A DNA stretch of 64,000 bases from a virus (taxonomy: Duplodnaviria; Heunggongvirae; Uroviricota; Caudoviricetes), in the IMG/VR virus record IMGVR_UViG_3300032327_001521; one strand, written 5' to 3'. A program made the position numbers and the translations under genes. Position 1 is the stretch's first letter; each line of letters starts with the position of its first letter. A model generated the notes under the pieces. The model worked only from the letters and a program-made list of their open reading frames with translations. It made no database searches and was not told the origin of the DNA. Shown one piece after another: positions 41,174 to 63,960 of this stretch.

Positions 41174-41734
41174 ATGGTGAAAATATTAGAATTCAAAGAA
41201 TTTAAGACCCGACTTAGAGCCGTATACGAAGATGAAGTTACGCCAGATGCAGCAGATGCTCCTGCTCCACCGGCCGCGGCTCCACCGCCACCACCTGCAA
41301 TGCCTGCTCCGGATTTAGGAATTGGTGCCCCACCGGCTCTACCTCCTGACCCAAATGCTCCGCCGGCTGCTGCAGCAGGACCAACTGAAATGAAATTTGT
41401 TTTTATTAAGGACGCAACTAAGAAACCTTGGCATGGACATCATGATCCTGAATCAGGCGGCACTAAGCGACTTGTACAATATTCAGTTACAAAAGAAGAG
41501 CTACAAAAATGGCTTGAGGTTCATGAATTTGAGGCGGAGTCAGAGCTTGTTATGGCTGCGCTAGCAGGTAAACGAACAATGCCACTTGATGTTTACAAAA
41601 AGTTTAAAGCTGAGGTAAAAGACGGTTCTCTTGGGTCAGATAGAGGTACTACTGATATTAAATTTGATACAGATTCAGAGTTCGATCAGCCTTCTACCTC
41701 AGATCTTGATATTGTTTTCCTAAAGTCAAAGTAA
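41174..41734 (+). CDS. Hypothetical protein with Pro/Ala-rich linker, candidate capsid-internal protein
   Basis: N-terminus MVKILEFKEF..AVYE, then PAPPAAAPPPPPAMPAP. Late promoter at 41139-41147. Confidence 0.75.
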   Translation: MVKILEFKEFKTRLRAVYEDEVTPDAADAPAPPAAAPPPPPAMPAPDLGIGAPPALPPDPNAPPAAAAGPTEMKFVFIKDATKKPWHGHHDPESGGTKRLVQYSVTKEELQKWLEVHEFEAESELVMAALAGKRTMPLDVYKKFKAEVKDGSLGSDRGTTDIKFDTDSEFDQPSTSDLDIVFLKSK

Positions 41735-42357
41735 TGAAAGCATTTGATAACTTTATAACTGAGTCAAAGGTTGATGCTGCAGCTAGTGCAATTGCATCTG
41801 ATATTGTAAATGTGATTAAAAGATTGAGTGGCCAGGTCAAAATAAACCTAACTCTCGAGTATCGCAGTTTAGCTAATGCAATCATTCACCTAACTGTGAT
41901 TCGTGGCGCACTACCAGCCGGTTCAACTGGCTGGGAAAAGATAAACTATAAACGTCACGGCTTTTCACTAGACTCTAGTGCATACATTCAGCCTGATGGT
42001 CAAATTGGAATAAATGTTGACCTTTATATCAGCCCAACCTCTGAGCCTGCGTGCTACCCTCAACTTGAATATGATATGACTGATTCAATCCGTCATGAAA
42101 TAGAGCACAAGTTTCATACATCCAAGTCTCAACCTGCTCAACGACATGCGCATAAGGACACATATCAATATTTCCTATTACCGGATGAGGTTCCATCAAT
42201 GGTTTCAGGCCTATCACTCTCAGCTAAACGCGAGGGTATTGCATTTTCCGCTGCTGTTGCCAATTACTTGACTCCATTTGTTGAGTCAGGCTTCATCACA
42301 GTTGACCAATTTGATCATATCTCACAGGTTTGGTCAGACTGGGCCAATTCTCACTAG
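41734..42357 (+). CDS. Putative zincin metallopeptidase, candidate capsid-internal protein
   Basis: HEIEH (HExxH) plus downstream YFLLPDEV. N-terminus MKAFDNFITE. Confidence 0.6.
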   Translation: MKAFDNFITESKVDAAASAIASDIVNVIKRLSGQVKINLTLEYRSLANAIIHLTVIRGALPAGSTGWEKINYKRHGFSLDSSAYIQPDGQIGINVDLYISPTSEPACYPQLEYDMTDSIRHEIEHKFHTSKSQPAQRHAHKDTYQYFLLPDEVPSMVSGLSLSAKREGIAFSAAVANYLTPFVESGFITVDQFDHISQVWSDWANSH

Positions 42358-42428
42358 CCCATTATTTCACTAACCCGCTGCCTTATGCTATCTCAATAGC
42401 AAAGTTTTAATTTTCCCTTACCTTTTAC

Positions 42429-42456
42429 AAACCTAATCCCAAAAATGTAGTAAAAT
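42429..42456 (+). promoter_or_regulatory. Pre-replicative promoter motif upstream of gp32
   Basis: AAACC-N16-GTAAAAT (spacer one base longer). Confidence 0.55.
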
Positions 42457-42491
42457 TATAATCTATAAACAAAAAATTCTTATCGAAAGAC

Positions 42492-43526
42492 ATGGAAGAC
42501 CTCTTTAACTTAAACACTGACTATTTTACCGGAAAAGCTGGTAATGCTGCCCGTCGGGTAGATGAAAACATGTATAATCCTGGGCCAGACCAAGGCCAAA
42601 ATGGTATTTACAAATCCGTTATCCGATTTATTCCTTGGGCCGGAGACCCAACCAAGAGCAAGTACAAAAAGTATGCTGCTAAACTTGTTAACCCATTAAC
42701 TAACGAACGACTCCTAATTGATTGCCCATCTACAAATGGCGCCTCTTCAATTTTATGGTCACTTGATCTTGAGCTTAAAAAACTCAAGAACGAAGAGCCA
42801 GCAATTGTTGAAGAAATTCAAAAGTATTTTAACCGGTACTACAATTACTATTCGTGCGTTTACATCAAAAAGGATCCGCAGTTTCCAACACTTGAAGGCC
42901 AAATCAAGATCTACTCTTATGGCTATACAATTGATAATCTTATTCAGCAGGAGCTCAATCCGGAAGCGGAACTTGTAACCACCCAAACAATCAATCCATT
43001 CTCGTTAACTGCCGGTAAGGATTTTGTCCTGGTGATCAAGCGCAAGACCAAAGCATGGCGAGACTTTAGCTCAAGCAAGTTTATGAGTGAAGTTAGCCCG
43101 CTTATTATTACGCATGGCGATAAAGAGATTCCAATCTCACATGATCCAAAAGTAATGAACTTTGCCAGTGAGTACCTTAAAAAGAACTCTCCGGACATGA
43201 GCCCTTACTTTTACAAGGAATGGACCGATCATGAATACGAAAAAGTTGCGGAGTATATCAAGGCAATTATTCCATACAAGCAAATCATTGATACACTAGT
43301 TAGTGGATCAAAGGATGAGAGAATGAAGCAACATTTCAGAAATACTCAACCTGTTGCCCGGACCGCTGCTCCAGCTGGTGAATCTCTTGAATTTACGCCA
43401 GCTCCACAGTCCAAGAGCCAATCAATTAGCTTAGAAGACGATTTTATGCCGACTACACCAGCTGCTAAACCAGCAATGGCAGCCAAAACACAAGATAGCC
43501 TAGACGATCTTTTTGCAGACCTTTAA
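42492..43526 (+). CDS. gp32: Single-stranded DNA-binding protein (T4 gp32-like)
   Basis: YKSVIRFIPW, YYSCVYIKKDP..P.LEGQIKIY.YG, GKDFVLVI. Acidic tail DSLDDLFADL. Confidence 0.85.
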   Translation: MEDLFNLNTDYFTGKAGNAARRVDENMYNPGPDQGQNGIYKSVIRFIPWAGDPTKSKYKKYAAKLVNPLTNERLLIDCPSTNGASSILWSLDLELKKLKNEEPAIVEEIQKYFNRYYNYYSCVYIKKDPQFPTLEGQIKIYSYGYTIDNLIQQELNPEAELVTTQTINPFSLTAGKDFVLVIKRKTKAWRDFSSSKFMSEVSPLIITHGDKEIPISHDPKVMNFASEYLKKNSPDMSPYFYKEWTDHEYEKVAEYIKAIIPYKQIIDTLVSGSKDERMKQHFRNTQPVARTAAPAGESLEFTPAPQSKSQSISLEDDFMPTTPAAKPAMAAKTQDSLDDLFADL

Positions 43527-43546
43527 ACAAAATCCCCTAAATAGAA

Positions 43547-62406: not shown

Positions 62407-62423
62407 CGCGTCTTATTTTTTTA

Positions 62424-62434
62424 GTTATTTATTT
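62424..62434 (-). promoter_or_regulatory. Late promoter box for the tail tube gene
   Basis: AAATAAATAAC, overlapping the stop of the upstream gene. Confidence 0.6.
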
Positions 62435-63264
62435 GAGACCAGTTCGGATTTTGCAGCAGAGTTAGCAGCAAGTATATCCCGTTCAGCTCTAGTGCCTTGC
62501 ACCTTTTTAGCCAATTGTAATAGCCACTCATCGCTATCATCAGCTGTTTCAGCTTTTGGTACAGATGCGTTTTCGCCAGGCGTAAATCTAAGCTCAACCG
62601 ATGGTAGTATCTCAACCAACAAATTTTGACCGTCCTCTGTATTAAAATCAGCATAGGTAAATTCAACAGTTTGGCCAAGCACTCCACTGATCTTAACTAT
62701 TGCCTTGATTTTAGCAGAGTTGTCAATTTGCTCTTCACCGACTACTTTGGTAATATTATTAGAAACACGGTATCTAATTGTAACATCGCCAGATCTTGGA
62801 GATTGAGCCTCAATAAATCTTAGTCTGTCTCCAATTACATTAACTGTGTATGGAATAGGTTTCTCAGGTTGTGACTCAGGTTTATCAGGCGAGGCTTGCT
62901 CAGGCTTTTCAATATCTACCTCATCATTGTTTGCCGTTTCATCTGGTGTGACTTCCGGTTCCGTAACCTGAGCCTGCCCAGCAGATAAGGCAAGAGCCTC
63001 ATTCTGCTTAGTTTGCTTAATCTTTGTGTCTATTATTGCACAGATCTGCTTGACTACTCCAAGTAGGTCAGCAATTGATGTGTATTTAAAATAGGTAGCA
63101 GTGGCCACAGCCTTAGAGAAGAGCAGGTCAGGGTAGATATCTGTCGTATGCAGCTCAATAGACTGATCGGTTTGATCCCATTTGGGCTGTTGACCTTGTC
63201 CAGGACTTGCCCATGTGATATCAAAACTCACGTACGACTCCGCTATTACCCCTGTGCCTATCAT
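62425..63264 (-). CDS. Hypothetical protein
   Basis: 279-aa ORF with an acidic/Pro linker, in the tail tube cluster. Confidence 0.7.
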   Translation of the reverse strand: MIGTGVIAESYVSFDITWASPGQGQQPKWDQTDQSIELHTTDIYPDLLFSKAVATATYFKYTSIADLLGVVKQICAIIDTKIKQTKQNEALALSAGQAQVTEPEVTPDETANNDEVDIEKPEQASPDKPESQPEKPIPYTVNVIGDRLRFIEAQSPRSGDVTIRYRVSNNITKVVGEEQIDNSAKIKAIVKISGVLGQTVEFTYADFNTEDGQNLLVEILPSVELRFTPGENASVPKAETADDSDEWLLQLAKKVQGTRAERDILAANSAAKSELVSNK

Positions 63265-63267
63265 CTA

Positions 63268-63585
63268 TTAACCAATCTCTTTATCTCCTTGGAATTCTTT
63301 TCCGCGGTTTGACTTTTTCTTGTCAGGATTAACTGGCTTGTAATTAGCCCAAATCTCATTGTATATTCGGCATGATGCTCCCATAAAGTTAACGATTCCG
63401 ACATATTTCTTGCGGTCCTCGCCCTTCATCTTTGTAATCTTTTTACCAATAGCCCGAGCATCATCAAGATCCAGCTCTTCCTCATCAGTCTTGCCAACGA
63501 GGTCCTTTAGAGAGTTTCCTTCTGACATAAATGACTCAAACGTTAAATACGGCTTTTCTTCTCCGTTTCGTGCAACTCTTGCCAT
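63268..63585 (-). CDS. Hypothetical protein, candidate capsid-internal protein
   Basis: ATG at 63585 (MARVARNGEEKPYLTFESFMSE). The track's start at 63591 is TTG. Confidence 0.7.
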   Translation of the reverse strand: MARVARNGEEKPYLTFESFMSEGNSLKDLVGKTDEEELDLDDARAIGKKITKMKGEDRKKYVGIVNFMGASCRIYNEIWANYKPVNPDKKKSNRGKEFQGDKEIG

Positions 63586-63597
63586 ATACAATTGGGA

Positions 63598-63960
63598 TTA
63601 TTTAGTGCCTTTTACAAGGCCAGGATTTACCATTTTGCTGATAGACTTTCCTTTAATTACAAGATTTGAGGTTTGCGTATCAACCATTTTCTTAGAGGCT
63701 GAGCCCTTTCCTTTTGGAAGATCTACCATCTTGTCATCAACCATTTTCTTAGGTGCAGAACCTTTGCCTTTTGGAAGATCGGCTGTCTTAGTATCAACCA
63801 TTTTCTTAGAGGCTGAGCCCTTTCCTTTTGGAAGATCAGCTGTTTTGGTATCTACCATTTTCTTTGGAGCAGAACCTTTAGTAGGTGCACCTTTTGATAA
63901 ATCTTGATCAACTGCCTTTTTTTCAAGAAGATACTCTGCGTAACTTAGAACAGATTTCAT
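63598..63960 (-). CDS. Lys-rich repeat protein, candidate packaged DNA-binding protein
   Basis: MKSVLSYAEYLLEK, then about 4 copies of KKMVDTKTADLPKGKGSA(S/P). Confidence 0.8.
   Translation of the reverse strand: MKSVLSYAEYLLEKKAVDQDLSKGAPTKGSAPKKMVDTKTADLPKGKGSASKKMVDTKTADLPKGKGSAPKKMVDDKMVDLPKGKGSASKKMVDTQTSNLVIKGKSISKMVNPGLVKGTK
63681..63880. repeat. 57-bp tandem repeat (3 full copies plus a partial fourth), alternating A/B variants
   Basis: c(a/t)accattttc recurs at 63681, 63738, 63795 and 63852. Copies 1 and 3 share ttagaggctgagccctttccttttggaagatc. Copies 2 and 4 share gcagaaccttt. Confidence 0.95.

Follow-up and report, generated by a model that had tools for sequence, protein, structure and literature searches.

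Unrelated proteins of an uncultured T4-related phage share a probable capsid-targeting leader

How do proteins that have nothing else in common come to carry nearly the same short peptide, in most cases at their N-terminus? The question is raised by a 64,000-nucleotide stretch of the IMG/VR virus record IMGVR_UViG_3300032327_001521 (called the window throughout, meaning the stretch at its full length), which, to judge by its genes, is part of the genome of a large uncultured myophage, a distant relative of T4. A sequence-only reading of this DNA had singled out six peptides with a common aromatic-x-x-aromatic pattern and had likened them to the capsid-targeting sequence (CTS) of T4 internal proteins. 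We found each of the six peptides as written at its site. The common pattern is strict in five of them; the peptide at 41174 follows it only in a spaced form (FKEF, six residues, VYE). The six genes are as follows and are named here by the first coordinate of each line.

41174..41734 (+): 186-aa orphan; leader MVKILEFKEFKTRLRAVYE (residues 1-19, bases 41174-41230), then D; spaced type; a Pro/Ala-rich linker follows the leader, then a conserved C-terminal domain (residues 73-186)
41734..42357 (+): 207-aa protein; leader MKAFDNFITE (residues 1-10, bases 41734-41763), then S; contains RHE[IM]EH (HExxH)
45259..45846 (+): 195-aa HAD-type 5'(3')-deoxyribonucleotidase; leader MLKNFSQFLNE (11 residues, bases 45259-45291), then S
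61150..61782 (-): 210-aa protein, last gene of the late operon; internal IIRFEDFVNE (residues 107-116, bases 61435-61464), then N
63268..63585 (-): 105-aa protein; leader MARVARNGEEKPYLTFESFMSE (residues 1-22, bases 63520-63585); conserved mature part from GNSLKDL
63598..63960 (-): 120-aa basic repeat protein adjoining the major capsid gene; leader MKSVLSYAEYLLE (residues 1-13, bases 63922-63960), then K

The leaders in the window measure 10, 11, 13, 19 and 22 residues; the 61150 site is internal and therefore not a leader. We estimate at about 75% the probability that the common peptide is a capsid-targeting leader of the T4 type, removable by a protease. The six proteins are probably head-internal, and some tagged proteins are perhaps delivered into the host together with the DNA. 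According to this explanation, the tagged proteins would be made late, and two aromatics three residues apart would attach the leader to the scaffolding core while the prohead assembles. A protease of the gp21 family would then cut after the Glu of [ILVM]-x-E and free the mature protein inside the head, scaffold repeats and cargo presenting the same recognition and cleavage element. Core binding, cleavage, presence in virions and ejection are all steps that we infer by analogy with T4.

The motif is concentrated at protein N-termini

We worked with a strict pattern, [FYW]xx[FYW][ILVM]xE, and with a relaxed pattern that admits a spacer of 0-5 residues into the strict one. The strict pattern matches the six-frame translation of the window 15 times, and 8 of these matches lie inside real open reading frames (ORFs). 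Four of the eight start no more than 17 residues from the start codon, one is internal (61150 ORF, residue 110) and three lie deep in long proteins, which is approximately the level of chance. With corrected gene calls, 4 of 44 N-termini in the window carried the strict motif versus 1 of 503 internal segments (Fisher p = 1.7e-4), a value that is optimistic because the pattern had been defined post hoc.

This weakness does not apply to the conservation data, nor to a test in a second genome. As a proxy we used the 252,618-bp IMG/VR contig G001, estimated to be 93% complete, whose bases 98.9-159.4 kb are colinear with the window at protein identities of 36-92%. In G001, 15 of 278 N-termini contained the strict motif versus 11 of 1790 internal segments (p = 1e-7), and 8 of the 11 internal matches fall in a single gene, the protease-scaffold gene described below. 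The motif starts at residues 4-10 of the tagged G001 proteins. The relaxed form was found at 27 of the 278 N-termini, with at least one false positive (a UvsX-like protein).

The similarity could in principle be due to chance, to a feature of the DNA or of translation initiation, or to a remnant of gene duplication. MK-rich and A/T-rich 5' ends are common, and the pattern was picked after the fact. Shuffled N-termini, the control by which the sequence-only reading wanted its motif to be judged, contradict an origin by chance: in G001 they yielded a mean of 0.74 matches and a maximum of 5 over 2000 shuffles, against the 15 observed. Chance is also contradicted by the persistence of the tag across orthologues down to ~40% identity. 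The variants that invoke DNA or duplication are contradicted by differing codons and by the lack of paralogy beyond the tag (see next section), and we find this alternative as a whole hardly credible.

The tag behaves as a modular peptide

Once the tag is removed, the tagged proteins show no mutual similarity, and only orthologue pairs between the window and G001 match each other. The tags themselves have a median nucleotide identity of 50%, and the codons at their conserved positions differ (TTT/TTC, ATA/ATT/CTA/CTT/TTG/GTT and GAA/GAG). Differing codons combined with the lack of similarity beyond the tag indicate that selection acts on the peptide.

The tag also stays constant while the length of the linker or leader varies, as seen in the families of the 41174, 41734, 63598, 63268 and 61150 products. 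For the last three of these, we compared 80 IMG/VR loci that have the protease gene at their centre. The clearest case is the 63268 family, in which ~10 to 84 residues precede the motif and the sequence after the Glu (NSLKDLVGK...) is 67-84% identical. Because the length before the motif varies while the sequence after the Glu stays conserved, the functional boundary in this family, as read from the alignment, sits exactly at the Glu. Orthologues of the 63598 protein at 41-61% identity keep Y..[FY][LI].E followed by K; in the most distant one (36%) a single residue is inserted in the tag, and one further row has a miscalled start. In relatives of the 61150 protein, the internal motif reads VEEG[KR]I.RF..F[VL]NE at 53-77% identity and QFENYMFE at 35-41%, with one distant row off pattern (L115).

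Most tagged genes of G001 cluster at 11-34 kb, in a block without counterpart in the window. Among the other tagged proteins of this genome are a CHAP amidase (PF05257, E = 2.8e-9) and a further HExxH protein. Two adjacent G001 genes, 11796-12581 (+) and 12606-14390 (+), have in common a 15-residue N-terminus, MKH[TS]IIKDFKGWNRL, with no detectable similarity beyond it.

A 354-aa late-box gene at 201920-202984 (-) of G001 has two strict motifs towards its C-terminal end, FDQFVNE (residue 278) and YESYLNE (residue 330), which may point to C-terminal processing. Such processing has been reported for T4 Alt and gp21.

The leaders correspond in position to those of T4

In the T4 genome (NC_000866), ipII and ipIII begin with MKTYQEFIAE followed by A, and ipI begins with MKTFKEFTSTTTPVSTITE followed by A, a spaced form of the FKEF...ITE type. 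Other T4 sites are AFGSFLTE followed by A in gp23, MAKINELLRE followed by S in gp24 and MELITELFDE followed by D in Alt. The CTS of the internal proteins IPI, IPII and IPIII is removed by gp21 (Mullaney and Black 1996; reviewed in PMC9026906 and PMC3012670). Its residues 4 and 7 mainly serve targeting and its residues 8 and 10 processing, with gp21 cutting after L/I-x-E (PMC9026906). The 10-residue CTS alone packages foreign proteins, the T4 leaders have affinity for the core, and the internal proteins co-purify with gp22 (PMC9026906).

The likeness to the T4 CTS proposed from the sequence held up: the same four functional positions recur, the leaders measure 10-22 residues and a protease of the gp21 family is encoded in the contig. 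MKAFDNFITE of the 41734 product is in exact register with MKTYQEFIAE, the 45259, 63598 and 63268 leaders match the same positions with a shifted start, and the spaced 41174 leader (FKEF...VYE) parallels that of IPI. As in T4, there is a putative late promoter of the TATAAATA kind, and the gp21-family protease belongs to the head module.

The differences from T4 are equally clear. Phage clade and host lineage are distant: only uncultured huge phages and Bacteroidota phages have similar tail sheaths, at ~30% identity. G001 has 15 strict and up to 27 relaxed carriers, whereas 100 kb of T4 were found to hold two strict ones (ipII and ipIII) and the spaced ipI. The cargo includes recognisable enzymes, namely a deoxyribonucleotidase, an HExxH protein and, in the relative, a CHAP amidase. 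Finally, the protease is fused to a scaffold-like domain of motif repeats, and the system is known here from sequence.

The prohead protease is fused to repeats of the same motif

A gp21-like protease, which the sequence-only reading had proposed to look for, is encoded in the window's 96.9-kb contig by a 658-aa Peptidase_S77/S80 gene (PF03420/PF20034). The gene lies two genes past the window end and hence outside the 64 kb; genes past base 64000 are represented here by their G001 orthologue and by the database proteins P0014 and P0021. Directly past base 64000, adjoining the ORF that starts at 63960, is a Gp23-family major capsid gene (576 aa), and a DnaJ-like gene immediately adjoins the protease gene. 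The G001 orthologue of the protease (161268-163250, -) scored above the cut-off with E = 2.6e-10, and the protease-scaffold gene has more than 4000 database relatives at E <= 1e-5. A search of IMG/VR turned up 402 contigs with this gene.

P0014 (658 aa) and P0021 (640 aa) consist of an N-terminal protease domain followed by a scaffold-like repeat domain. The latter contains Y..Y[LIV][AG]E at residues 332, 346, 360, 374, 388, 402, 416 and 430, that is, with an exact period of 14, as well as degenerate copies upstream and one extra copy at residue 559. Across the clade the repeats number 8-12 and take the form [IV]xYxxY[LIV]xE[KN]xxxx, and their 14-residue spacing is retained in homologues down to 58% identity. 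The AlphaFold2 model of the whole protein has a low confidence (predicted local distance difference test, pLDDT, 53), and we took from it only the helical character of the repeat region. As no separate gp22-like gene was found beside the capsid gene in G001, the repeat domain fused to the protease is presumably the scaffold. Core and cargo leaders bear the same seven-residue element, the former in its scaffold repeats.

This match suggests a possible, though doubtful, extension of the targeting explanation, in which the tag would be a free-standing copy of the scaffold repeat unit [FY]xxY[LIV]xE and the cargo would enter the core as if it were itself a repeat (a surrogate repeat), or would occupy the protease's substrate groove. 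The cut that dices the scaffold into ~14-residue peptides would then also release the cargo. A complex prediction with the repeats (residues 282-445, two copies) and the first 60 residues of the 45259 protein gave no answer (score 0.00, without controls) and counts neither for nor against binding. In the more distant relative G003 (IMGVR_UViG_3300008448_000004; complete, 181 kb), which has a separate gp21-like protease, the scaffold contains two or three TLDE[LI]LA-like stretches that are not statistically prominent, and T4 gp22 has no aromatic repeats. Since neither of these scaffolds offers a clear match, the equation of tag and scaffold repeat is supported in the present clade only.

In the main rival explanation, the motif would be only an extended site of the prohead protease, with aromatic P7 and P4, aliphatic P3 and Glu at P1, which marks proteins to be cut and has no role in targeting. 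Incorporation would then proceed via other parts of the proteins, or some proteins would be cut without being packaged. We consider this unlikely. A leader of 10-13 residues that is removed would have no evident purpose unless it acted before its removal, the tag is borne by unrelated enzymes without features of head proteins, and in T4 residues 4 and 7 carry targeting while the 10-residue CTS alone suffices for foreign cargo (PMC9026906).

Besides the post hoc definition of the pattern, several points nevertheless weigh against a targeting leader. The same seven residues occur at cleavage sites other than leaders, namely AFGSFLTE of T4 gp23, the scaffold repeats and the internal 61150 site, as the protease-site explanation would have it. 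Two homologues of the 41734 protein retain F4 and F7 without the Glu, and cleavage would therefore not be universal. For a packaged deoxyribonucleotidase we found no obvious precedent. The relaxed pattern had to be abandoned as a classifier owing to false positives such as the RecA/UvsX-like 52347 product. Lastly, packaging in this phage or its close relatives is argued by analogy with T4 alone.

In another alternative, the leader would be an amphipathic handle unrelated to the capsid: a handle for binding by phage chaperones (GroEL/GroES, DnaJ), a helix for membrane association or a localisation signal. The phage indeed encodes Cpn60, Cpn10 and a DnaJ-like protein, and the combination of a Lys with a hydrophobic cluster behind it recalls Hsp70-binding peptides. 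Such a handle would leave unexplained the nearly invariant Glu at a fixed distance, the identity with the T4 processing positions, the repeats of the protease-scaffold and the association with late promoters; moreover, the tagged proteins have no hydrophobic span fit for secretion or membrane insertion. We judge this explanation to be quite improbable.

A possible cleavage site in the G001 capsid protein, SLNE53 followed by A, was given no weight, as only residues 107-145 align to T4 gp23 and provide no anchor.

Late boxes precede tagged genes

The late boxes that had been described before the 41174/41734 pair and before 45259 are real. Together with two hairpins, they delimit these genes as listed here.

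41112..41136 (+): terminator-like hairpin after the nrdA-like gene; -16.6 kcal/mol, z = -2.75, 0 of 200 shuffles as stable, followed by a U run
41140..41146 (+): ATAAATA late-type box, 34 nt 5' of the 41174 start; kept in G001 at 135683
45219..45225 (+): ATAAATA late-type box in the 3' end of the GroES-like gene, 40 nt 5' of the 45259 start; kept in G001 at 140086
45892..45915 (both directions): terminator-like hairpin; separates the nucleotidase gene from the tail sheath gene, which converges on it

The hairpin at 41112-41136 sets the 41174/41734 pair apart from the replication/nucleotide operon with its ribonucleotide reductase gene. In the window, ATAAATA also occurs 24-34 nt before the genes of the tail sheath, the tail tube and three baseplate or fibre proteins. 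The total number of ATAAATAR sites in the window is not above chance (17 versus 14.4 expected), so that only their position relative to gene starts is informative. Of the 87 ATAAATA boxes in G001, 38 are correctly oriented and 20-40 nt upstream of a start, against an expectation of 1.2%. A box of their own precedes 9 of the 15 tagged G001 genes versus 42 of the 263 others (p = 2.5e-4). Overall, ATAAATA is found 25-40 nt upstream of tail and head genes and of 41174 and 45259, and on this sequence evidence the tagged genes may be expressed late, together with the head genes.

The window also encodes, at 27745-28164 (-), a 139-aa protein whose sole match is to sigma-70 region 2 (E = 3.6e-6). It is a candidate for a gp55-like late sigma factor acting on the ATAAATA boxes.

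Another ATAAATA, at 37524-37530 (+), lies 13 nt before a 47-codon ORF (37537-37680) between the S1-domain and nrdB-like genes. G001 has a box and a 47-codon ORF at the same place (132070), the ORF having no detectable similarity to that of the window. What the box at 37524-37530 drives may be the small ORF itself or a late transcript of the reductase genes.

Tagged genes among replication genes

The 41174, 41734 and 45259 genes are placed among replication genes and have late boxes of their own, one being common to the 41174/41734 pair. This makes their products candidates for proteins that enter the next host along with the DNA, and better ones than those of the three tagged genes of the late operon.

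For the 41174 product we obtained no match in Pfam or PHROG. Among ~40 distinct N-termini of its homologues, ILEF[KNR][ED]F[KR] is kept except in two odd rows (P0172 and P0178). It is followed by 2-7 variable residues, [ILVMFY]-x-E, acidic residues and the hypervariable Pro/Ala linker. In the window protein this linker comprises ~50 residues (21-72, bases 41233-41390).

In the 41734 family (8 homologues), M1, F4, F7, R120, H121, E122, E124 and H125 are invariant. An AlphaFold2 model of the 41734 protein (pLDDT 84.8) shows residues 1-8 below 50 and disordered and the fold beginning at residue 14, so that in the model the leader stands outside the fold. The protein had been called a peptidase, for which the invariant HExxH is the ground; no fold match was sufficient to sustain the name. 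A Foldseek search of the model against the PDB gave nothing at E <= 0.001, and in a wide VIA-align search the best Z was 4.4, the weak rows including M1 aminopeptidases, YbeY and PprI/IrrE.

The assignment of the 45259 product as a nucleotidase was borne out by PHROG 2643 (E = 3.7e-26, residues 16-183). Motif I, DxDx[TV], is found as CDLDGV at residues 22-27, downstream of the leader; the match to Pfam NT5C is weak, with 19 bits, under the cut-off of 24.8. Homologues in viral contigs with the aromatic tag begin with MLKNFSQF[LI].E, the next seven residues diverging, and one has a related aromatic leader, MNALNKWKSFLSE. Other homologues carry an aliphatic tag, MIKLLDILKE (MIKLxDILKE), and in some the catalytic DxDG is preceded by no leader.

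Tagged genes beside the capsid gene

The 63598, 63268 and 61150 genes lie within the head/tail late operon near the capsid gene and are conserved across the clade. Their products resemble components of the prohead core or internal structural proteins more than they do variable effectors. The sequence-only reading had proposed that the tagged proteins form an anti-defence and takeover kit. We found nothing to support this, and three of the six rather resemble conserved proteins of the head core.

The 63598 product is basic, as had been stated, and its G001 orthologue has an isoelectric point of 10.1 once the tag is removed; a role in DNA binding is a guess from charge. In the 61150 product, the internal motif divides a basic N-terminal half from a very acidic C-terminal half.

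Several traits recall the prohead core proteins gp67 and gp68 and the scaffold gp22 of T4, all cut by gp21 at L/I-x-E. Like gp67 and gp68, these are small proteins encoded beside the protease and capsid genes. The acidic tail of the 61150 product follows the cleavage motif, as GEEPEDED follows ...NFLIE in gp67, and the 63598 product is strongly basic like the gp68 C-terminus and the internal proteins. The scaffold bears many cleavage sites, as does gp22. Unlike in T4, protease and scaffold-like domain form one polypeptide, the sites of this domain are aromatic and recur strictly every 14 residues, and there is no sequence homology to gp67, gp68 or gp22.

Across from the 63268 and 63598 genes, the other strand contains a 182-codon ORF (63359-63907, +) that lacks a homologue in G001 and should best be taken as spurious. 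Picking ORFs by length favours it and masks the two real genes.

Leaders in other phages

The giant phages phiKZ, 201phi2-1 and SPN3US resemble this system in that a diverged gp21 homologue cuts many of their head-internal proteins after Glu, and these proteins are presumably ejected into the host (PMC5694885). In contrast to the window leaders, their propeptides mostly exceed 100 residues, end in S/A-x-E and have no short leader in common (PMC5694885). The leaders of the window are short and stereotyped, as in T4.

In G003, five neighbouring genes at 154408-158875 (-), one of them a nucleotidase homologue, all start with MIKL.[DNT][IL]L.E. These leaders are hydrophobic at positions 4, 7 and 8 and have Glu at position 10, and thus represent an aliphatic flavour of the device. 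The variable internal-protein loci of T-even phages are clustered in a similar way. The leader seems, as far as these sequences tell, to be a general device of far-T4 phages with lineage-specific flavours.

What appears to be new here is a probable leader of the T4-CTS kind outside T4 and its close relatives. In the literature that we searched, which left out many subscription papers, such leaders are undescribed beyond T4, its close relatives and, as long propeptides, the phiKZ-like giants. If the leader reading is true, the packaged proteome of very abundant uncultured freshwater phages could be read from sequence. It would amount to ~5-10% of genes, a set several times larger than that of T4 which would include the nucleotidase, the CHAP amidase and HExxH proteins. 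Provided that the tags work as in T4, the activities needed in the first seconds of infection would become a question for genome data. The match between tag and scaffold repeat is a concrete, testable idea of how a CTS is recognised and, if the surrogate-repeat reading is true, would give a structural answer to this question. Furthermore, such a short and portable tag could help to package proteins into phages that infect Bacteroidota-type hosts.

Gene neighbourhood of the window

A megablast search of window bases 41000-46000 against the phage collection gave no match. The tail sheath shares only ~28-35% identity with its counterparts in uncultured huge phages and in phages of Flavobacterium, Tenacibaculum and Prevotella. 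Genes of the replication type in the window encode a gp32-like single-stranded DNA-binding protein, an RNase H-like exonuclease and a RecA/UvsX-like protein. They are accompanied by genes for GroEL and GroES homologues, the small sigma-70 region-2 protein, the tail sheath and the tail tube.

The phage encodes both Cpn60/GroEL (29819-31390, +; E = 5e-66) and Cpn10/GroES (44943-45266, +; E = 7e-21). T4 supplies only a co-chaperonin, gp31.

At 57191-57682 (+), the window encodes a SET-domain protein (PF00856, E = 4e-6) that is kept in G001. Its gene sits between the genes for a Mre11-like (metallophosphatase) and a Rad50-like (SMC/AAA) nuclease.

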